A stretch of 64,000 nucleotides of DNA. Source: a virus (lineage: Duplodnaviria; Caudoviricetes). The stretch is taken from positions 12,659-76,658 of IMG/VR virus record IMGVR_UViG_3300044477_000030; one strand, given 5' to 3'. Each line of letters opens with the position of its first letter. The stretch's first letter is position 1. The position numbers were made by a program, and so were the translations under genes. This document shows positions 1 through 40,223 of the stretch, one piece after another. Under the pieces are notes generated by a model. That model worked only from the letters and a program-made list of their open reading frames with translations, was not told where the DNA came from and searched no databases.

Positions 1-514
1 TTCCAGCAGAACCCACCGCACCGGAGGCTGTGAAGTCGTCACCGCTCTCCGATGCGGACATCGTGCCAGACAACGCAACGGAACCAGATGCTGTGAAGTC
101 ATCGGCACCTTCGTTCGCCGACATTGTGCCGTTGTAGGTCTGGGTTCCAGATGCGGTGAAGTCGTCAGCTCCTTCGTCAGCCGACATTGTGCCAGTTAGC
201 GCCACGGAGCCGGAGGCCGTAAAATCATCGGCCCCTTCGGATGCAGACATTGTACCGGTAACAACAACGACAACGGAGCCGGATGCGGTAAAGTCGTCAG
301 CTCCTTCGTTGGCGGTCATCGTGCCGGACAGCGCAACGGAACCGCTGGCGGTAAAGTCGTCCGCGCCTTCGTTGGCGCTCATCGTGCCAGACAACGCAAC
401 GGAACCGCTGGCGGTAAAGTCGTCAGCTCCTTCGTTGGCGGTCATTGTGCCCGTTGGCGCATTGACGGCAAGAAGTCCTGTGGCGTGTCCTAACGGTGAG
501 AATCCAATAGACAT
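1..514 (-). CDS. Virion-associated acidic repeat protein (partial, runs off the window start); 21-23 aa repeats GTM(S/T)A(N/S/D)EGADDFTASGSVALS
   Basis: ATG at 514 with GGAG RBS; my translation MSIGFSPLGHATGLLAVNAPTGTMTANEGADDFTASGSVALS... is open to position 1; absent from the ORF track because no stop lies in the window. Confidence 0.85.
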   Translation of the reverse strand, partial: MSIGFSPLGHATGLLAVNAPTGTMTANEGADDFTASGSVALSGTMSANEGADDFTASGSVALSGTMTANEGADDFTASGSVVVVVTGTMSASEGADDFTASGSVALTGTMSADEGADDFTASGTQTYNGTMSANEGADDFTASGSVALSGTMSASESGDDFTASGAVGSAG

Positions 515-527
515 GAACAGTCTCCAG

Positions 528-875
528 TTATGCAGTCTGCCTTATAGACCAGGTGAATGTCCTGTCGGTTCCAGTTATCTTTCTGATCCCAAAATCCCAA
601 TAACTAATGAGCATTATGGGATCAATGACAATTAAAGGCTGGGAGTGGGCACCATGGAATCTGATGGTGCGCAAATCCAAAGTCCCTCCTTGATAGACAG
701 CGGAGCCCTGTATCTTCACCTCATAGGTGTCTCCGACTGCCATGTTCGATGCATCCACGAGCAACTGATAGAAGCCGGACGCCGTGTTGTTGACCAATCC
801 TATCTGGTTCGCGGTCATGGAATACCACGAAGTCGTTATGGTGGCCGATCCGCTATATGCTTCGCTGATAGCCAT
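528..875 (-). CDS. Small beta-rich accessory virion protein, family S (copy S4), 115 aa
   Basis: Start MAISEAYSG at 875 overlaps the upstream stop (TAATG); clear paralogue of 2967-3314 (shared MAISEAYSG...GTDRTFxWSIR). Confidence 0.8.
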   Translation of the reverse strand: MAISEAYSGSATITTSWYSMTANQIGLVNNTASGFYQLLVDASNMAVGDTYEVKIQGSAVYQGGTLDLRTIRFHGAHSQPLIVIDPIMLISYWDFGIRKITGTDRTFTWSIRQTA

Positions 876-1216
876 TATGGTACAATCCTTCTGATCCCGT
901 AGGTCATGTCCACAATACTGTCGGACGACTGCAAATAAAATGTCGCCGAATTCATGATGAGAACGGGATTGGATACAAATCCTTTGCCACTTCCGTATCC
1001 GGTGAAGGAATCGTGCCACACGAATCGTTCGGTGTCTCCAGATCTGGCTTTTTCTTGCAGGAATATGTGAAGGATGTCATGAAATGTAGCCGTCTCCATC
1101 AAAGGGGACAAGTCCACAAATAATTGGTACACGCCTGGGGTTGTTATGGCGGAACCACAAGCCGCATAGCCGGTGGAAACCGTTATTGTCCCATATTGTA
1201 CTTGTTCGACTGCCAT
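875..1216 (-). CDS. Small accessory virion protein, family S (copy S3)
   Basis: MAVEQVQYG...; shares GVYQLFVD and EKARSGDT with 3317-3685 and 2967-3314. Confidence 0.8.
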   Translation of the reverse strand: MAVEQVQYGTITVSTGYAACGSAITTPGVYQLFVDLSPLMETATFHDILHIFLQEKARSGDTERFVWHDSFTGYGSGKGFVSNPVLIMNSATFYLQSSDSIVDMTYGIRRIVP

Positions 1217-1217
1217 A

Positions 1218-2072
1218 TCATCCACCGAGAAGATAGAGACCGCCAGCGTAGGCTGTCTCCAGCGTACCGCTGTCCTGCGCTCTCATGTACAGATTCGAGC
1301 CACTTTTCACAAATTTGTAGTAATCGAACGGGGCATTCGGGATCTCCGCGAGGGTTTCGACGGAAGCCACCACATAATATCTCTCCTTCATGGCCAGATA
1401 TTTGTAATTGCTACCGTCTCCACAGGCACTATCCACAAGAATGCTTCTTGTTGTCGTGGAAGTATCTCCGGTTATCGCAAAGCCTTGTTGAACCCACCAA
1501 TAGTTTTTGGTTATATTGGAGGCTATCAGTGTCCATGCACCGTTGTTTGTTGTCCCTGGTGTCAGCGCAGTCCCGGTGGATGTGGAAGTAGAAACTCCGA
1601 ACGAATCCACATAGGAACCGAATTGTTGCAACTTTGATGATCCCGCCCAATGGGTTGCCGTGATCCACACATAGACGCTCGTGGAGGAAGATGCGGACGA
1701 TTGGTGGAAAGCATACAGCGGAGTATTATACGCAATATGGATCGGGAACGAGTAACCTATTTGCGCATTGTAGGAGAGTCCTGCTCCATAACACATCAAA
1801 TTCGGTATTAGAACATTATTTCCCGCCGAATCAGTACAGATTTTCACTAGGCGTTGCGTATTTATTCCACTCGGAGATGCCGCCGATATTCTTATTGTGA
1901 GGTTACACACTGTTCCGGTTGTTGTATGAACAAGAACTCCCGTCCCCCATGTATTCGCAGATGCAGCACAAGCAACGGCGGTTCCGTTGTTATTAGATGG
2001 CCTGTCGGTCGAATCTACATTTGATTCAACACCTTGGTCTTTTCCATCTTTTCTAAGATCCCCGAATATCAT
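1218..2072 (-). CDS. Accessory virion/tail protein, family L (copy L4), 284 aa
   Basis: Shared ANTWG, IC(S/T)DSAGNxVLIPN and FPxxI motifs with the other three L copies; Thr/Ser/Gly-rich beta composition. Confidence 0.8.
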   Translation of the reverse strand: MIFGDLRKDGKDQGVESNVDSTDRPSNNNGTAVACAASANTWGTGVLVHTTTGTVCNLTIRISAASPSGINTQRLVKICTDSAGNNVLIPNLMCYGAGLSYNAQIGYSFPIHIAYNTPLYAFHQSSASSSTSVYVWITATHWAGSSKLQQFGSYVDSFGVSTSTSTGTALTPGTTNNGAWTLIASNITKNYWWVQQGFAITGDTSTTTRSILVDSACGDGSNYKYLAMKERYYVVASVETLAEIPNAPFDYYKFVKSGSNLYMRAQDSGTLETAYAGGLYLLGG

Positions 2073-2932
2073 ATATCTCCCAAGGCATACACCACAATAC
2101 GGTACGCTCCTTCCAAAGACGCACTATGTTGTGCGCACGCCCATATATTCCCCCCTTCTCTCACGCGAACGGAACACTCGTGGAGTCCATTTGGGACGTT
2201 AAACATGGATTCACTGGTTGTGCTGAATCCGAATTGAACGTTGTGCTGAATATAGTGGTACCCGAACGTTCCGCCATATCCTATTGCCAAATCCACATGA
2301 GTTGTTCCCACGCCTATATTTGAATCTCCGTATGGAACAATCATCGGCTGGAGATACCAATATGTTCTTGGAACACCGGCATAGATCTGGGTTATGACTC
2401 CTTCTAGAGTTGTTCCTGGGGTTATCGCAGTGCCGGATGAGGTCGCTGTGTCTGCGCCAAGGGCATCAATGTAATGTCCACATCTGACCATGGACGGGCG
2501 GCTAGGATTCCCCCACACCGTCACCCATACGTCAATTGCAGTCCCTGCTGTATCTGATGCCTGTGCAAATGCGTACAAGGTTGTGCCGGAGGGTATGTAG
2601 AGTGGAAAGTAATAAGTGAGTCCACCCATATTCATGTATGGAGAACTAAAGGCGAGAAGATTTGGGATCAAGACGTTGTTTCCTGCCGAATCGGAACATA
2701 TCTTGACCATGCGCTGAACGGAAGATGCAGACGTATCAACACCATGTAAAACAATCTGGATACCGTAGCAATCCCCGGTGAGGGTCATTAGAGATGCACC
2801 CGTGCCGTAGGTGTTTGCGGTTGTCGATGGGGTTGTGGCCGTCCCAAATCCACCGGCACCCGCTTTCGGACGAGTGCCATCCGATACATTCGATTGGCGA
2901 TAGGTGAATTCGTTTAAGAGATTGACAATCAT
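2069..2932 (-). CDS. Accessory virion/tail protein, family L (copy L3), 287 aa
   Basis: ANTYG...ICSDSAGNNVLIPN...FPLYIPSGTTLYAF; ATGA overlap with L4. Confidence 0.8.
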   Translation of the reverse strand: MIVNLLNEFTYRQSNVSDGTRPKAGAGGFGTATTPSTTANTYGTGASLMTLTGDCYGIQIVLHGVDTSASSVQRMVKICSDSAGNNVLIPNLLAFSSPYMNMGGLTYYFPLYIPSGTTLYAFAQASDTAGTAIDVWVTVWGNPSRPSMVRCGHYIDALGADTATSSGTAITPGTTLEGVITQIYAGVPRTYWYLQPMIVPYGDSNIGVGTTHVDLAIGYGGTFGYHYIQHNVQFGFSTTSESMFNVPNGLHECSVRVREGGNIWACAQHSASLEGAYRIVVYALGDI

Positions 2933-2940
2933 GGCTACTT

Positions 2941-2957
2941 AGTATAATACAAAAATT
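2941..2957 (-). promoter_or_regulatory. Phage promoter motif AATTTTTGTATTAT between the two accessory cassettes
   Basis: Matches the motif AAWWTTTG-TA(T/G)WAT found upstream of more than 12 genes in this window. Confidence 0.6.
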
Positions 2958-2966
2958 CAAGTCATC

Positions 2967-3314
2967 CTAGGCGACCTTTCTGATCGACCAGTAAAACGTC
3001 CTATCCGTCCCGGAGATCTTCTTCATAGTCATGTCCCACCCATGGAGCAAAATGAAGGATTCAGAGATGTAAATGGGCATGGTCTGGGCTCCAGCGATGG
3101 TCGCGGCCATGAACACGCGCTGGGTGTCGCCGGAACGGGCTTTCTCATAGAACTTCAGATCGTACACATCACCGGAAGCCATGTTGTAGGTGTCCAGGAC
3201 GAGTTCATAAACCCCGTCTTCGGTGATCGGGGTTAGGGTCGTCCCTGCGTTGGGCAACGAATACTCCGTGGTGGAGATGGTCGCTGTCCCAGAATATGCT
3301 TCAGATATTGCCAT
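2967..3314 (-). CDS. Small accessory virion protein, family S (copy S2), 115 aa
   Basis: MAISEAYSGTATIS...EKARSGDTQR...GTDRTFYWSIRK. Confidence 0.8.
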   Translation of the reverse strand: MAISEAYSGTATISTTEYSLPNAGTTLTPITEDGVYELVLDTYNMASGDVYDLKFYEKARSGDTQRVFMAATIAGAQTMPIYISESFILLHGWDMTMKKISGTDRTFYWSIRKVA

Positions 3315-3316
3315 AA

Positions 3317-3685
3317 TTAACCTGCTTTCCTTATAGATATTTGTACTGTTGCAGATGGTATTGTTTTCCGGACAGTGATTTTCCATCCTGCCGACAACAA
3401 TACCGGAGGAGTGACCATCATTTGTAAATTGGGATTTGATGGATTGAGAGAAAGCGAGAGTTCATGAGACAATCTCTGAGTGTCCCCTGATCTCGCTTTC
3501 TCGTATATTTTCACACTAAGATAGGTGACGCTTCTCGATCCGCCAGGAAGAGTCGGAGGATTGAGACCGTAATAATCTAAAAATACTTGATAAACACCCG
3601 CTTCGTTCTCATCGGAACCGCTCACTGTGGTCTCGGTCGTATTGGTTGCTAGGATTTGAGATGTTGCGTATTCCGTTATTGCCAT
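3317..3685 (-). CDS. Small accessory virion protein, family S (copy S1)
   Basis: MAITEY...GVYQVFLD...YEKARSGDTQR. Confidence 0.8.
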   Translation of the reverse strand: MAITEYATSQILATNTTETTVSGSDENEAGVYQVFLDYYGLNPPTLPGGSRSVTYLSVKIYEKARSGDTQRLSHELSLSLNPSNPNLQMMVTPPVLLSAGWKITVRKTIPSATVQISIRKAG

Positions 3686-3687
3686 AT

Positions 3688-4542
3688 TCAACCCATTGCG
3701 TAAATTGCACCCTTGTAGCCAGCTTCGGAAGACGTGGAACCTTGCACTCTCATGTACAATGCACTTCCCGTCGGAACATATTTGCGAAACATGATCGGAT
3801 CTCGTGGATGCTTGGATATGGAAGATTTGTTGGATCTCACCATGTATCTCTCCCCGGAATATATGATGTTCTTCTCGCTGGAATTGCCATATGCAATATC
3901 CACATGATACACACCGTCGAGCATATTCGGAGACCCCACAACCCCAAACCCTGTCTGGAAATATTCATAAGGTCTTGTGGTGGAGCCCACAATCTCTGTC
4001 CATGCTCCATCGGAAGATGTACCGGGGACGATGGTTGTTCCGCACGAAGAAGACAGATCGACACCGAGCGCATCGACGTATCGAGCCGGGTTGATGGACA
4101 TGGGGGATAGACTTCTCGCAAACAAGTAAGTAGTTCTTACAGTGATTGTTATCGACGAGGACTGATCCGTGCGCAAGAAACCGTACAATGATGCCGACGG
4201 AGGGACTGATATTGGGAACAAATATAATATGCTGCCGTTGTAGAGTTCGGATGCTCCGGTGCATATTATATTTGGGATCAGGACATCGTTCCCGGCTGAA
4301 TCGGAGCAGATTTTCATCATCATCTGCACAGACGAGCCCAGTGTGTTTGTGGCCATTGTTATTTGCAATAGTATGAAACAACTTTCGTTTGTGGATGATC
4401 CGCCAATACTCACACCCGTTCCCCATGTGTTCGCTGTGGCGGGGGAAGAGATGGATGCACCATAACCAGGGCCGGGGGCTGTGCTCGTTGTGACGTTGGA
4501 AGCACTGTAATCTGCGCAAGAAGTAAAGCCTCGTCCGATCAT
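3688..4542 (-). CDS. Accessory virion/tail protein, family L (copy L2)
   Basis: Probable start MIGRGF at 4542, just after the L1 stop; ANTWG...ICSDSAGNDVLIPN. Confidence 0.8.
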   Translation of the reverse strand: MIGRGFTSCADYSASNVTTSTAPGPGYGASISSPATANTWGTGVSIGGSSTNESCFILLQITMATNTLGSSVQMMMKICSDSAGNDVLIPNIICTGASELYNGSILYLFPISVPPSASLYGFLRTDQSSSITITVRTTYLFARSLSPMSINPARYVDALGVDLSSSCGTTIVPGTSSDGAWTEIVGSTTRPYEYFQTGFGVVGSPNMLDGVYHVDIAYGNSSEKNIIYSGERYMVRSNKSSISKHPRDPIMFRKYVPTGSALYMRVQGSTSSEAGYKGAIYAMG

Positions 4543-30884: not shown

Positions 30885-31020
30885 TTTGAGATTCCTATAT
30901 GGAATAATACAAAAAATTGAGCTAAACCATCTCAAATTTCTTCACCCATCCACCCTATTCCACCCTGTAACGTCGAAAGTGCGCAAATTTTTGTATAATG
31001 GTAGAAGAAAAGGAGTGTGT

Positions 31021-33805: not shown

Positions 33806-34829
33806 CGTCGTTCCACTTGTGGCATATTTCAGAATCGCATTCGAATCTGTTTAAAAATTGCCATTATTCGTTTTCTCTAATATCGTCCATTTTCAGATGG
33901 TTTTCTTCCATTTCCAACAATCTATCAACAAAAATCCGCTGGCCGACATTCCCAAAATTTTTTTTCACAAAAATCGAGCTCCAAAAATCGTGAACATACC
34001 CCCATCGGTGAGATTTTTTCCACCCCCAAATACCCACTTTACAGCCCATTGGCCAAAACTACCCCACTTAGGTAGCCAAAAGGTAGTAAAGTAGGCTAAA
34101 ATCGGCCTCCTTTTGCCCGGTTTCATGCCTCCCCGATCCCCATCCACCCATCTGCCGGTCTCCTTCTCCCGATTCCAGGCATCCAGCGGCCAGTTTCCCA
34201 TATCCCAATCCTCCCCGTCTCCCCCATACGGGCTTCCTGTGGTCAGTTTTCTGGTTTCTGGGCTCTGGCGCGCTCTGCGGGGCGGGAATCTGGGGATAAG
34301 GTAACTAGGGTCTGGGATAAAATCCGCTGGGGATGAATGAAAGTATGGTCTGGACACGGAGTGGTGCGATAGGAGGCCCAAATACCCCCAATACCCCCAA
34401 AAACAAAACCACCTACATCTTCCCAAGTTGTTCATCCACCAATTTCCCAATCCCCCAAAACATCCCAAGATATAGGAATCTTTTTACTAGGAACTATTTG
34501 CCGGTTCGGTTTGGCTTGGATAGGTAGAATTTGCTGGATTGAGCAGCTTTTGCACTTATGCCCTTGGAATTTATGCTATATTAAGCCTTTTGCCTATTGT
34601 GTGCCTTCAATCTGTGCCATATTGGGCAATATGCTATCCATTGCCTTTGGATCCATGGTATGTTTGGCGCTTTGCAGTGCTATACCTTTTGGCCCTATCC
34701 TTTGGAGTGCATAATAATGAAAGCTATTTAGTAGATTTGGCTATCCTATGCCTATTATCTTTGATTTGCGGGCCTTTTGTATTTGGGTTATAGGATAATG
34801 TCTATGATAGTTCTTTGTTGTATAGACGC

Positions 34830-34860
34830 AAAAAAAGGATACCTTTGTTTTGGTATCCTT
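34830..34860 (-). terminator. Rho-independent terminator ending the AT-rich minus-strand operons
   Basis: AAGGATACC...GGTATCCTT stem followed by a T-run on the minus strand. Confidence 0.85.
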
Positions 34861-34881
34861 TGGAGTTGGTTTTTCATTGGG

Positions 34882-35118
34882 TTAATTTGGCATCCCCTTT
34901 GATAGTTTCCTAAGAATATCTGAAGGAATGTACTTTCTTTTGTGGGAATTGTATTTTCCCTCATTGCCTTTTATTGGAATCCATTGGAGCTTATACATTT
35001 GCGCCCAAGATAGATTTGACCCTTTGCAAATATCCAAGGCCCAAAACAAAATAGCTTTGTGCTCTGGAAACGAATAATTCTCAATTTCCCCTTTTATTCT
35101 ATCTTTGTCGAATTTCAT
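34882..35118 (-). CDS. Small hypothetical (early-type) protein
   Basis: ORF track; coupled to the upstream gene. Confidence 0.65.
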   Translation of the reverse strand: MKFDKDRIKGEIENYSFPEHKAILFWALDICKGSNLSWAQMYKLQWIPIKGNEGKYNSHKRKYIPSDILRKLSKGMPN

Positions 35119-35387
35119 TGTTTGACCTCTTCGAAGACGTAACCTTTCACCTTTTGTTCCTCAATCGAAAGTCTTTTAAGTGTTCTTTGGGTTATTAGTC
35201 CGTGTTTTCCGTTTGCTTCGATTGAGTAGATTTGGGCGTCCTTGTCAATGGTGTACACTTTGAAGCTCGACATAGTTTGACCGAAAAAGCGCAAAGTTTG
35301 GCGACTGAAGAAATATTCTCCCAAATTTGAAGAATACTTAATGTCCGAAATTGTGGGCTTTCCATGTTGCAAGCTCATATTCAACAC
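35115..35387 (-). CDS. Small hypothetical protein (YFFSRQTLRFFGQT motif)
   Basis: ORF; motif recalled from small phage early proteins. Confidence 0.65.
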   Translation of the reverse strand: MLNMSLQHGKPTISDIKYSSNLGEYFFSRQTLRFFGQTMSSFKVYTIDKDAQIYSIEANGKHGLITQRTLKRLSIEEQKVKGYVFEEVKQ

Positions 35388-35767
35388 TCCTGGAAAAGTT
35401 CCAATTCTTGTCTTGACATCAAAGAAAGTATTCTTTTTGTGTTTTCTGCTATTTTTTGATATGTATTGAATGCATTGATTGAATCATTTGAATAGCCGCA
35501 ATCATCGCAAAAATCATTAAAAGAACAATCGGCCAAAGAAGTATCCAAAGCTAAACATTCCAAAAGATCTTCAATCTTTGGACGTTCTTTTCTTCCTTTT
35601 CCAGTAAAGAACTCAAACTTTTGAGAATTCCCCATTATTCCATTTTTGGAAAGCTCAAATATCCAAGCGTTGGAATTTGGGAAATTTTCGTTTATTACTT
35701 CAGTTGGACGAATTTTCCAATTCAAGGCATTCAAAACAGATTCTTTTGTGCAATTTGCGTTTTTCAT
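35381..35767 (-). CDS. Small hypothetical protein (FNDFCDDCGYSNDS motif)
   Basis: ORF with AAGGA RBS; motif recalled from phage early proteins. Confidence 0.7.
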   Translation of the reverse strand: MKNANCTKESVLNALNWKIRPTEVINENFPNSNAWIFELSKNGIMGNSQKFEFFTGKGRKERPKIEDLLECLALDTSLADCSFNDFCDDCGYSNDSINAFNTYQKIAENTKRILSLMSRQELELFQEC

Positions 35768-35787
35768 GGTTTTAGTCCTTTTTGATG

Positions 35788-35988
35788 TTAAAATCCAACA
35801 TAAACATAATAAACCGAAAAATCCTCATACTCCTCAAATTTTCCCATATCGGCTTGGTAATTTTGGAGAATTTGAGCTATTTTGGATTGTTTTGGTAGTC
35901 CTCCTACTATTTCCACCATAAGCCTAGAAATATAGGATTCTGTCAATTCGTCAGCCTCGTTCCATTTACTGAAAATTCTAAACAACAT
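35788..35988 (-). CDS. Small hypothetical protein
   Basis: MLFRIFSKWNEADEL. Confidence 0.5.
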   Translation of the reverse strand: MLFRIFSKWNEADELTESYISRLMVEIVGGLPKQSKIAQILQNYQADMGKFEEYEDFSVYYVYVGF

Positions 35989-35998
35989 AAAAATTCTC

Positions 35999-36367
35999 CT
36001 ATTTGCCAAAAAATAACTTTCTAAGTTCCTTAGTACTTCTTATTTCGACGCATTGGACAACGTCATAAGAGTAAAATTCATCTTGCCATTCTTCCTTTTG
36101 TTCTTCGGTATATTTTGGATTTTCATTCTCAAACTTCTCAAACTCCATTTCCTCAAATTGGGTTATTGCTTCTTCGTCACAAGAACCAAAAACTAAATTA
36201 GTCCCATAGACCCCTTGCAAGGCATAAAGTTTATCATTCCAACATTTGTACTTTGTGATGTATTTCAGTGAATAAACCAAATCACCAAAAGAATCAATAA
36301 AGGGAAAACGAATTTTTACAGAAATTGGGTATTTTGGTTCCTTGCCACAAATAAATAGAGTAAACAT
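35999..36367 (-). CDS. Small acidic hypothetical protein
   Basis: GAGG RBS, 122 aa. Confidence 0.65.
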   Translation of the reverse strand: MFTLFICGKEPKYPISVKIRFPFIDSFGDLVYSLKYITKYKCWNDKLYALQGVYGTNLVFGSCDEEAITQFEEMEFEKFENENPKYTEEQKEEWQDEFYSYDVVQCVEIRSTKELRKLFFGK

Positions 36368-36444
36368 GAAAACCTCTTGCTAAAGGTAACAAAGCGCAAA
36401 GACAATAGGAAAAAGGTAAATCAATGCGGCATACATGGAAAACC

Positions 36445-36573
36445 TCAAAAGGTTAAAAAGAGAAAATGGAATTCTAGGGACTCTTTAGGCATTGGCTTTT
36501 TTGGGCCTTTGAAAGCGCAAAAAACACAAGCAAGTCCAAACAATACAAAAGGAACGCTAATGAATAAAATCAT
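36445..36573 (-). CDS. Small membrane peptide (42 aa)
   Basis: TAATG-coupled; MILFISVPFVLFGLACVFCAFK. Confidence 0.4.
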   Translation of the reverse strand: MILFISVPFVLFGLACVFCAFKGPKKPMPKESLEFHFLFLTF

Positions 36574-36809
36574 TATGCTACCACAAAGAGAATGTTTTCC
36601 AGCTCTTCAGAAATTCCGCTTTCCCCGAAAATTTCTTCGAAACTTTGGGAAATTGCTTCTTTGTCGATAGTTGGAACATTTCCGGTGCATTCGGCAATTT
36701 TTGCCGCGACATAGTTAGCAATTCCAAAAGCCACATTATTTTCTATGGCAACTGCCATAGAATTTTCCAGTTCTTGATTATGCATTATCGATAGATTGAT
36801 GTGCGTCAT
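36573..36809 (-). CDS. Small hypothetical protein
   Basis: GAGG RBS downstream of a sigma54-type promoter. Confidence 0.65.
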   Translation of the reverse strand: MTHINLSIMHNQELENSMAVAIENNVAFGIANYVAAKIAECTGNVPTIDKEAISQSFEEIFGESGISEELENILFVVA

Positions 36810-36842
36810 AGATTTAATCCTCTTTTGCGGTCATCCCATATA

Positions 36843-36860
36843 TAGCTAAGTCCGTGCCGT
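36843..36860 (-). promoter_or_regulatory. sigma54-type -24/-12 promoter (CGGCACG-GACT-TAGC)
   Basis: GG (36858-57) N10 GC (36846-45); ATG 35 nt downstream. Confidence 0.6.
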
Positions 36861-37160
36861 TTGCCAAGTGCTATATATGGGCCTCTATATATCCCCACAA
36901 AAATGCGTTGTCCAACTTTGCTCTTGTGTGGGCAAATATTTCTTACACTAGGATTTTAGGCAAAAGTTTAATAACTTGAGATTCTTGATCTCAAATAAAA
37001 GCTCAAATCTACTATCATTTGGAATAATGGTGTTTAAAGCTCAAAATCCTCATTTAGAAAATGTATGTCATTCGTCGGAAAAAAAGCGGAACTTTTCGTT
37101 CCATCTAATTTCTAAAGTTATTAAAAGAACATTAAAAAAAACTAAAAAGTTGGCTAAATT

Positions 37161-37315
37161 TGCGCAGAATAGCCGAAAAAATTATCGTAACTTTTTGTTT
37201 CATCAAATAACTAAAAGTTCTCCACTTTATAGGAAATTTCCTCAAATAGTTTTGTTTTCTGCGCAGAATAGCCGAAAAAATTATCGTAACTTTTTGTTCC
37301 ATCAAATAACTAAAA
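37161..37315. repeat. 56-bp direct repeat x2 (period 99 bp, 1 mismatch)
   Basis: TGCGCAGAATAGCCGAAAAAATTATCGTAACTTTTTGTTYCATCAAATAACTAAAA at 37161-37216 and 37260-37315. Confidence 0.95.
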
Positions 37316-37525
37316 ACTGGACTATTCTACAATAGTCCTTTTCGGCATGGAATTTGATTATACTCTTTTAGTCATACCTTGGATTTAAGCTAAAGAAGCT
37401 AAGGCACTATTCTCATTTGGTATAGTGCTATTTAGCTCAAATTGCTCAAATCCATGGTCAAAGTTCTCAAGTTCCTATAAATACTAAAGTTGGTTTGGCG
37501 TCACGGGGCCAAGTGCAGCTAACCC

Positions 37526-37595
37526 CGATTGACGATTGACGATTGACGATTGACGATTGACGATTGACGATTGACGATTGACGATTGATGATTGA
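37526..37595. repeat. Heptamer tandem array (CGATTGA)9 plus one degenerate unit
   Basis: Read directly; sits right after the stop of 37599-37784. Confidence 0.98.
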
Positions 37596-37598
37596 TGA

Positions 37599-37784
37599 TC
37601 ATTCCTTCCTTTCTCTTTTCTTCACAATTCGATAAGGGTATTGTGGCATATTGACAAGATAATCCCTTTTCACCTTTTTTGCCTCTTGCCAAGTCCCTTC
37701 AGTGCAAACGCATTCCCACCCATTTCCAAATCCGTAATTACACTGAAGCTCGAATACATCAATGGTTTTCCTTGTGTATTTCAT
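37599..37784 (-). CDS. Small hypothetical protein (ELQCNYGFGNGWE motif)
   Basis: Coupled ORF; motif recalled from small phage proteins. Confidence 0.7.
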   Translation of the reverse strand: MKYTRKTIDVFELQCNYGFGNGWECVCTEGTWQEAKKVKRDYLVNMPQYPYRIVKKRERKE

Positions 37785-38020
37785 TTGGATACCTTCCCTT
37801 TCTTTTCCTCTTCAAAAGTTGCTGCTATTCTTGGGCGGTCATAGATGCCCATTTTCAAATCCTTTGGAGTAAACCCAAGCCAAATATGTTCATTCCCCAA
37901 TCTAAAAAGATTGTGAATATTGCATATGTCAATAGCCCTTTCGATGGTTATTCCCTTTTGTTCCAAGAATTCAGTTCTTTGACCGTTTTCGTACAATGTT
38001 GCCATTCTTAGCGTTCCCAT
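37781..38020 (-). CDS. Small hypothetical protein
   Basis: GAGG RBS. Confidence 0.65.
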   Translation of the reverse strand: MGTLRMATLYENGQRTEFLEQKGITIERAIDICNIHNLFRLGNEHIWLGFTPKDLKMGIYDRPRIAATFEEEKKGKVSK

Positions 38021-38049
38021 TGTGCTATCCTCTTTTGATTTGCAGCTAA

Positions 38050-38772
38050 CTACTTAGCAATTTCCGTTCCATTTTCTTCCTGCAATTCTTTCCAGTATTC
38101 AGGTATCAATTCGCAATGGTAATACTGGTCAATGTACAAATCTTCGCAATAATAGTAGAAATTGATATTGGCAAAATCGTGCAAATCTTCGCCCTTTTCC
38201 TTCCAAATGATGTAATGCAATGCCGTGCCAAGGCAATAATCAATTTTATCATCCAAGGCAAGGGCATGGAACCAATCGTATTCATCATGAGGAACAAAGG
38301 AAATAAAACCGTCACGGCTTTTCCAAGTATCATGCAACCAAGCAAAAAATGCCGTATTTCCCAAGGCGAATTTTTTCAGTTCCTTGCGAATTTTCCGTAC
38401 ATCACAATGGACGGTAAAATCCATTTCATCCCCTTGGAAGTTGTATTCCTTTGGGCTCCAATGGGATTTATATTCGATCTTTTCAATGGACGGGAACGCA
38501 TTCTTCCAATGTTCCAAACAGTTTTCTTCCAAGTAGGAAATTGCACGCTTGCAAATGTCCTGAAGATAATCGGAGAATTCAAACTTTCCACCGATTACCT
38601 TTTCGATAATCTTTTTATGGAACTCTTCAGGAATTTCCCCATAGTTTCCATTCTCCAAATCTTCCTTTAGGTTATATTCAAATCTATCATCCTCTAATGC
38701 ATCGAAATAAGTGCCATAGGTGGAAACGCTAACAACACGGCATATTCCAGTGTTCAATTCGATCTTTTTCAT
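38050..38772 (-). CDS. Hypothetical acidic protein, 240 aa
   Basis: AAGG RBS; SPKEYNFQGDEM motif. Confidence 0.75.
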   Translation of the reverse strand: MKKIELNTGICRVVSVSTYGTYFDALEDDRFEYNLKEDLENGNYGEIPEEFHKKIIEKVIGGKFEFSDYLQDICKRAISYLEENCLEHWKNAFPSIEKIEYKSHWSPKEYNFQGDEMDFTVHCDVRKIRKELKKFALGNTAFFAWLHDTWKSRDGFISFVPHDEYDWFHALALDDKIDYCLGTALHYIIWKEKGEDLHDFANINFYYYCEDLYIDQYYHCELIPEYWKELQEENGTEIAK

Positions 38773-38797
38773 TTGATACCTTCTTTTTGATTGATGT

Positions 38798-38822
38798 AAG
38801 TATTAAGCTAGATTCATGCCAA
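38798..38822 (-). promoter_or_regulatory. sigma54-type promoter TTGGCATG-AATC-TAGCTTAATACTT
   Basis: GG-N10-GC; 24/25 identical to 39955-39979. Confidence 0.7.
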
Positions 38823-38993
38823 TCCCAATCCCTTTATTTCGACGAATCGGGAAGGCACCACCTGGAATTATTTGCCCCATGGGAAATACTTGCCTGCAAT
38901 TTATACCCGCATGAACGAAACGAAAACGAAAGGCAAGAGGATAGGGCAAAATTGGATGAGCAAAATGGTAGCAACAATTTTCCAAATCATAGT

Positions 38994-39275
38994 TTACTCC
39001 TTTATCCCAAAGAATGCCTTGATTGTTTTCCAGTTCTCTACATTCTTGTCCGTGCAAATCATGAGAAAACCATTTTTTATTTCGGTATATTGCCAAGGCA
39101 TTTCGGGCGGAAATTCGGCTGCTACCATGTTCTCCATTCCCGACATATCATAATGCCAACTCAAAATCTTTGTTTTCTTCAAATGAGTCGAATGTACGGA
39201 AATTCGAGAACCCTTGGTGTTCGTTGCCCCAAGATACTTGATTTCAAGGCTTTGCGCATTGTATATTGGTTGCAT
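38994..39275 (-). CDS. Small hypothetical protein (KYLGATNTKGSRI motif)
   Basis: AAGGAG RBS; motif recalled from phage early proteins. Confidence 0.7.
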   Translation of the reverse strand: MQPIYNAQSLEIKYLGATNTKGSRISVHSTHLKKTKILSWHYDMSGMENMVAAEFPPEMPWQYTEIKNGFLMICTDKNVENWKTIKAFFGIKE

Positions 39276-39279
39276 GGTA

Positions 39280-39471
39280 TCATTCTCCTTTTGTCCAGAA
39301 GTTCCCAAGTGTTAATCCCCTTCCCGTGGACTTAATCGGGAATTGGGATGCCCTTTTTCCAAGATCGAAAATCCCCTTGGATTGTTGATAGGCTTGAATC
39401 AATGCTTCTTTAGCGGGAAGATTGAAAATCAATTCTTCCATGGTGTTAGTGTTGAATACTTTTGTTTGCAT
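39280..39471 (-). CDS. Small hypothetical protein
   Basis: AAGGA RBS. Confidence 0.6.
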   Translation of the reverse strand: MQTKVFNTNTMEELIFNLPAKEALIQAYQQSKGIFDLGKRASQFPIKSTGRGLTLGNFWTKGE

Positions 39472-39614
39472 TTGAAATCCTTTGGCTTAATAACCGAAAT
39501 AGATTACTATTGACTGACGGGAATGGTTGAAAGTGAATGAGTGTAGAAACTTTGGGCTTTCTTCCCTGAAGGCCCAAAAATTCCCATATGAATCGAAATA
39601 GGCACTTAGCAGCA

Positions 39615-39929
39615 TCAAGTCAAGACCCATTTAATAGATTCAAAATCCTTTCTCGAAAGCGGAAACTTTTCAGCCTTATTGTAAACAAAAGCCAAAACAT
39701 TTTGCCCTATACCGTCATGATTCACACTCTTTGGTCTCTCATTCCATGCAGTCAACATTTTCAAGGCGATTACTTTCGAGTCCTCGTCTCTCAAATAGAT
39801 ATATCCGGCGTCGTTTGCTTTCAGATAATCGAGGCAAGCAACATACACGGCCAATGGGCCTTTCCCCTTTGCATCCTTGATTTCCTGCAATTCTGCAATT
39901 TCCTTGATTCTTGTCTTTGTGATGCTCAT
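39615..39929 (-). CDS. Small hypothetical protein, 104 aa
   Basis: AAGGAAGG RBS downstream of a sigma54-type promoter. Confidence 0.7.
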   Translation of the reverse strand: MSITKTRIKEIAELQEIKDAKGKGPLAVYVACLDYLKANDAGYIYLRDEDSKVIALKMLTAWNERPKSVNHDGIGQNVLAFVYNKAEKFPLSRKDFESIKWVLT

Positions 39930-39954
39930 TCGATCCTTCCTTTTGAGTGATGCA

Positions 39955-39979
39955 AAGTATTAAGCTAGATTCGTGCCAA
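39955..39979 (-). promoter_or_regulatory. sigma54-type promoter TTGGCACG-AATC-TAGCTTAATACTT
   Basis: Perfect -24 box TGGCACG; GG-N10-GC. Confidence 0.75.
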
Positions 39980-40126
39980 TTCAAAATGGGCTAATTTGCG
40001 CATTTTCCGCATTCATTGCAGGCAATTTCTTCCAATGGGCAAAACTTTCCTTTCTATTCCAATTTGGACTATATTTCTTGCCTAAAATATCTCAATCTTC
40101 CATATAACACAAATCTGGAAACAAAG

Positions 40127-40157
40127 AAAAAAGGCCACGGGATTTTGTCCCATGGCC
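40127..40157 (-). terminator. Rho-independent terminator
   Basis: GGCCATGGGA-CAAAA-TCCCGTGGCC followed by T6 (G-U pair only on the minus strand). Confidence 0.85.
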
Positions 40158-40162
40158 GTATG

Positions 40163-40223
40163 CGATTGACGATTGACGATTGACGATTGACGATTGACGA
40201 TTGACGATTGACGATTGACGATT
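40163..40223. repeat. Heptamer tandem array (CGATTGA)8 + CGATT
   Basis: Read directly; lies between the stop of 40222-40728 and the terminator. Confidence 0.98.

Follow-up and report, generated by a model that had tools for sequence, protein, structure and literature searches.

The small sigma70-family factor gp55 of phage T4 recognizes promoters that have only a -10 element (TATAAATA). Pseudomonas phage YuA was reported to depend on both sigma70 and sigma54 (PMC10914365), and its sigma54-like promoter, originally from Ceyssens et al. 2008 as cited in that paper, is supported by mapping of transcription start sites with ONT-cappable-seq (PMC10914365). Here, we describe three minus-strand sites, P1, P2, and P3, in a 64,000-nt stretch of DNA (the window; all positions below refer to it) that corresponds to bases 12659-76658 of IMG/VR virus record IMGVR_UViG_3300044477_000030 (Caudoviricetes), which is 76,658 bp long and has direct terminal repeats of 127 bp. 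On the best reading of the sequence, to which we assign a probability of roughly 60%, the three sites are -24/-12 promoters read by the host sigma-54 (RpoN) holoenzyme and head the small-gene units of an accessory island.

GG and GC dinucleotides at the heads of three minus-strand operons, first pointed out in a preliminary description of the window, read as stated and are separated by exactly 10 nt in all three cases, with GG at -25/-24 and GC at -13/-12 (Table 1). Each site carries A at -14, giving TAGC in place of TTGC at the -12 element, and the C of the GC lies 34, 34, and 35 nt (P1, P2, and P3, respectively) from an ATG preceded by a Shine-Dalgarno (SD) sequence, within the distance of about 30-35 nt originally given. 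Reading both sequences also bore out the reported identity of P1 and P2 at 24 of 25 positions; their likeness spans about 55 nt, through the 5' untranslated region up to the ribosome-binding site (RBS), and the two are copies of a single cassette of about that length. P3 has in common with them only GGCACG, TAGCT, the AT-rich tail, and the RBS region. The whole-genome motif scan that the preliminary description had proposed, run on both strands of the 76,658 bp, recovered GGCAYG-N4-TNGC only at P1-P3, all three in the TAGC form. With 0.9 sites expected, and three or more found in 3 of 100 shuffles, this count is by itself only mildly unusual. Chance would not be expected, however, to place all three sites within 3.2 kb, outside coding sequence yet on the coding strand, and at a near-constant distance from an SD-preceded start codon. 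A perfect 12-bp inverted repeat (CCCATATATAGC at 36881-36870 and GCTATATATGGG at 36846-36835) has one arm on each side of P3, the 3' arm overlapping the -12 element and the predicted start.

The resemblance to bacterial sigma-54 promoters runs deeper than the -24/-12 geometry first seen, which itself stands. Relative to the extended consensus YTGGCAYGr-N3-TTGCW, P1 and P2 match the -24 block in full and P3 has C for T at -26, while the T at -15 and the T at -11 are kept in all three and are followed by an AT-rich tail, TWWATA. Except at -14, the resulting 21-nt block, TGGCAYG-N4-T(A)GCTWWATA, matches a sigma-54 promoter form found repeatedly in Bacillota genomes that carry rpoN, TGGCAYG-N4-TTGCT(TA/AT)ATA. 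One such promoter from a Massilibacillus metagenome-assembled genome (MAG), TGGCACGAATCTTGCTTAATA (G005:C117:15263), equals P1 at 20 of 21 positions, with -14 as the sole mismatch and with a 980-aa open reading frame (ORF) bearing a sigma-54-related match 3 kb away; another natural MAG promoter, TGGCACGAATTTTGCATATATA, resembles P3. Sites of the form TGGCAYG-N4-TWGC numbered 11, 25, and 24 in three MAGs that encode sigma-54 (1, 7, and 1 in the reversed control) and 1 and 0 in two MAGs without rpoN (4 and 0 in the control), such that the pattern behaves as a marker that tracks the presence of rpoN. The longer form TGGCAYG-N4-TTGCTWWATA occurred at 23 sites in 121 genomes of the phylum Bacillota, with none in the control, and at 6 sites in 151 genomes of the phylum Pseudomonadota. 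Nearly all of the 23 Bacillota sites had TTGCTATATA or TTGCTTAATA as their tail, and these two tails are also those of P1/P2 and P3, so the phage motif is host-like beyond the classical consensus as well. Unlike their bacterial counterparts, P1-P3 carry the A at -14, reside on an apparently lytic phage encoding neither sigma-54 nor an activator, and, in the case of P1 and P2, are accompanied by a candidate upstream element that has direct TTGCC repeats and no clear dyad.

The -14A form of the 21-nt motif recurs among viruses. In IMG/VR, it was found in 27 stretches belonging to 14 families, and in 8 of the 14 it lies in non-coding DNA upstream of an RBS and start codon; the reversed control yielded 15 stretches, mostly in coding DNA. 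Examples of TGGCACG-N4-TAGCTATATA in non-coding DNA before genes are L044:8881-8901(-), L059:6987-7007(-), L061:4140-4160(+), and L045:314-334(-). When four such viral sites are aligned with P3, only GGCACG and TAGCTATATA are invariant and the 4-nt spacer and flanks vary, which is the pattern that would be expected of a two-block promoter. L044 and L059 have homologous downstream genes, yet their 4-nt spacers differ. The canonical form was present in at least 120 IMG/VR stretches, a lower bound, and any enrichment of the -14A form in phages over hosts is therefore tentative. At long odds, the A at -14 may be the signature of a sigma-54 promoter variant that phages favour, either with a weakened -12 "lock" and reduced or promiscuous activator dependence or with a phage factor completing recognition.

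If host sigma-54 does read these sites, its holoenzyme would form a closed complex on the GG (-24) and GC (-12) of P1-P3, and a host enhancer-binding ATPase would open that complex, perhaps from a 30-bp element found upstream of P1 and P2. Transcription would start about 12 nt past the GC, leaving a leader of about 23 nt, and expression of the island would become contingent on a host signal. The 30-bp element has only two copies in the genome, E1 and E2, with none at P3; it is a candidate activator-binding site, its arrangement fitting an enhancer without being proof of one. The preliminary description had seen no AAA+ activator in the window, and this holds for the whole genome, where the only Sigma54_activat-like match, a weak one, is the clamp loader; a phage-encoded activator was rejected on this ground. 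No phage sigma-54 domains were found in the genome either.

Table 1. Features at and around P1-P3 (window positions).
Feature	Position	Strand	Details
P1	39962..39979	minus	Core TTGGCACG-AATC-TAGCTT = TTGGCACGAATCTAGCTT; GG 39977-39976, GC 39965-39964; predicted +1 near 39953
P2	38805..38822	minus	Core TTGGCATG-AATC-TAGCTT = TTGGCATGAATCTAGCTT; predicted +1 near 38796
P3	36843..36859	minus	Core CGGCACG-GACT-TAGCTA(TATA) = CGGCACGGACTTAGCTA; predicted +1 near 36834
Element E1	40015..40044		30 bp (TTTGCCC..TTGCCTGCAAT); ends 35 nt upstream of P1; 80% complementary to E2
Element E2	38871..38900		30 bp; E1 element in opposite orientation; ends 48 nt upstream of P2
Alternative promoters upstream of P1	40068..40113	minus	Degenerate main-class TTTGTGTTAT at 40113-40104; TTGAGA-N16-TATAGT at 40095-40068
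Sigma70-family factor P0123	40222..40728	minus	168 aa; directly upstream of P1; missed in the preliminary description
Intrinsic terminator (strong)	40133..40157	minus	Closes the sigma gene unit, before gene 39929
Unit 1	38903..39929	minus	Four small ORFs (104, 63, ~90, and ~29 aa); function unassigned
Unit 2	37599..38772	minus	ORFs of 240, 79, and 61 aa
(TCAATCG)n array and hairpin	37504..37600	minus	End of unit 2
Unit 3, first gene	36573..36809	minus	78 aa; function unassigned

Several observations weigh against reading P1-P3 as host sigma-54 promoters. The T that A replaces at -14 in all three sites is near-invariant and part of the TGC core, and the -14A form of the 21-nt motif did not turn up in any of the 552 bacterial genomes sampled (401 of the phylum Bacillota and 151 of the phylum Pseudomonadota); the canonical TTGC form gave 29 matches in 272 genomes. 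Because P1 and P2 duplicate each other, the number of independent sites is effectively two. Bacillota as the host is a weak guess, and a host RpoN is thus presumed: the nearest capsid relatives within genomes come from rpoN-bearing Bacillota MAGs, at only 49-55% identity. Close relatives that could be checked for conservation were not found, an exact-motif scan of IMG/VR giving 0 matches and single-protein locus searches coming back empty. Finally, other promoter candidates lie upstream of P1 (Table 1), P3 can also be read as TTGGCA-N17-TATATA, and P1-P3 follow the gene of a phage sigma factor, P0123.

These other candidates underlie a possible but doubtful alternative, in which unit 1 would be transcribed from TTGAGA-N16-TATAGT or TTTGTGTTAT before P1, unit 2 by read-through into P2, and unit 3 from TTGGCA-N17-TATATA at P3, with the conserved block acting as an operator or leader element for another regulator, or as a sigma-54 binding site that serves as a roadblock or decoy. 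The best sigma70-like site in the 12.5-kb region does lie 90 nt upstream of P1, unit 1 runs to P2 without a terminator, the inverted repeat frames P3, and the non-consensus -14 could weaken promoter function. Sigma70-like sites are nevertheless not enriched in that region (18 found, 24 expected), TATATA lacks a T at -7, the constant 34-35 nt to the ATG suits a promoter cassette, and in other phages only the two sigma-54 blocks of the sites are conserved. A strong intrinsic terminator closes the sigma gene unit ahead of P1, and a hairpin plus two more terminator-like sites lie upstream of P3, so a new transcription start is needed at both.

The sigma factor itself suggests a second alternative, namely that P1-P3 are promoters for P0123 and their likeness to sigma-54 sites is coincidental. 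P0123 has weak matches to a PHROG sigma family and to Pfam region 2, and its 61 relatives among 1.8 billion representatives include 34 of 45 aligned with Sigma70_r2. A profile of the family retrieved only sigma factors from the PDB (best E-value 1.5e-7), and an AlphaFold2 model (pLDDT 90.6) had sigma chains as all of its best 50 Foldseek matches. By profile and structure comparison, region 2 (core binding and -10 recognition) is present; the C-terminal three-helix domain is confidently modelled, but has a 10-residue loop in place of the turn of a region 4 helix-turn-helix (-35 recognition), and Sigma70_r4 was detected in only 1 of 45 homologues. Judged from these profiles and the model, P0123 is a real sigma factor. 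In related phages, its homologue directly precedes the packaging and structural genes.

A phage sigma factor binding the motif had been listed beforehand as an outcome that would speak against sigma-54, and a phage sigma gene was indeed found directly upstream; as the reader of P1-P3, however, P0123 is unlikely, and we give this alternative little credence. Beyond the adjacency, it draws on the fact that the -14A form was not found in sampled host genomes yet recurs in viral contigs, and on one other phage family (L038) in which a P0123-like ORF lies 1.6 kb upstream of a -14A site. We did not accept the L038 case as strong support, as that phage is large and T4-like (dUTPase, SSB, Hsp20) and a small late sigma would be expected there anyway. 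The P0123 explanation would also require that a natural sigma-54 promoter was matched at 20 of 21 positions by chance, relatives that bear a P0123 homologue lack such a motif, and two near-complete viral genomes with a -14A site have no P0123-like sigma. The conserved blocks of P1-P3 are one helical turn apart, a spacing unfit for sigma2/sigma4 geometry, and P1-P3 have nothing conserved 16-18 bp past TGGCAY, where a sigma70-family reading needs an element; coincidental recognition of such a block by a sigma70-family factor is very unlikely. A reading of TGGCAY as the -35 element of an extracytoplasmic function (ECF)-type promoter was rejected because nothing is conserved 16-17 nt downstream.

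A more natural target for a small phage sigma is the main promoter motif of the genome, TTTGTATWAT or (A/T)AAWTTTGTATWATA, which has about 25 copies at operon heads on the correct strand, without a -35 element, and often exactly 6 nt before the ATG, predicting leaderless mRNAs. This class is a natural candidate target of host sigma-A, the small phage sigma, or both, and would serve the genome outside the island. Copies of the -10-only promoter AAAWTTTGTATWATA are found, for example, at 30913(-), 30990(+), 45171(-), 50120(+), 57660(+), and 63306(+). Before structural genes the motif tends to AATTTTTGTATTAT and before replication genes to AAAATTTGTATAAT, a split that hints at two promoter sub-classes. 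The arrangement is like that of the gp55-type sigmas of T4 in that P0123 has about 170 aa with a recognizable region 2, the main motif lacks a -35, and the phage has a T4-like clamp and clamp loader. Unlike in T4, the link of P0123 to either motif is one that we infer, and no sequence match between P0123 and gp55 was obtained; searches of isolate phages with P0123 and the L038 sigma-like ORF (tblastn) returned no match, including none to gp55.

The surrounding genome has its structural module, which resembles that of the E217/Pa193 myoviruses, on the minus strand (portal, MuF, DUF2213, major capsid, sheath-like protein, and tape measure). It further encodes small and large terminase as packaging genes and a T4-like replication set comprising DnaB, primase, SNF2 helicase, clamp loader, sliding clamp, SSB, a RecA-like protein, and RNA ligase. 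The phage looks virulent because no integrase or repressor was found in its genome; a temperate lifestyle was rejected on the same basis and in light of the T4-like replication genes. Its best capsid relative is 63% identical, blastn of the phage against isolate phages gave no match, and Rfam and tRNA scans of the window were empty.

GC content is 47-53% across most of the window and 36-40% at about 34-40 kb, where P1-P3 sit. The preliminary description had called the operons early, an assignment that the analysis did not bear out: P1-P3 head three units of this low-GC accessory island, downstream of the sigma70-family gene. The island (34000-40100) consists of small ORFan genes between the sigma gene and the packaging genes, which are almost adjacent in relatives (L028) and are separated by it in this phage. 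None of the genes downstream of P1-P3 could be given a function from PHROG or Pfam, and the 240-aa protein of unit 2 is an ORFan without relatives among 5.8 billion proteins. Two heptamer arrays, (CGATTGA)n, identical to each other, close off the sigma gene unit (40163-40223) and unit 2 (37526-37600); each begins at a stop codon and is followed by a hairpin. A 790-bp non-coding stretch contains three 99-bp direct repeats (37079-37340), each bearing a terminator-like hairpin and T-run, with the hairpins degenerate in two of the copies.

Use of sigma-54 by a phage, of which the preliminary description knew no earlier account as an early-transcription strategy, has a published precedent in YuA, and canonical sites are common in IMG/VR: sigma-54-type sites there exceeded the reversed control at least 8-fold, 44 of 82 that were read lie in non-coding DNA, and some contigs bear 3 to 12 of them. 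On L084, a 161-kb IMG/VR contig, twelve GGCAY-N5-TTGC sites fall within 4 kb (228-3893) on both strands; L092 and L086 have three canonical sites each, before small genes. The present phage is like YuA in its apparently virulent lifestyle and in carrying a sigma54-type promoter beside sigma70-type promoters and a conserved phage-specific motif. It differs in host phylum and phage lineage, in grouping three cassettes, each with A at -14, in a single island, and in the kind of evidence, YuA being backed by a promoter trap and mapped start sites and P1-P3 being sequence predictions. What sets the present case apart is that A stands at -14 throughout and that a phage sigma gene lies next to the sites.

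Should P1-P3 prove RpoN-dependent, a fast-evolving accessory cassette would be tied to a host signal-transduction ATPase, while the core programme would run on a separate promoter class and the phage's own sigma—a two-channel design. Alongside the abundant canonical sites of IMG/VR, this would add to the evidence for enhancer-dependent transcription as a common and almost unstudied layer of phage control, and the uniform A at -14 would offer a handle on whether phages tune activator dependence.

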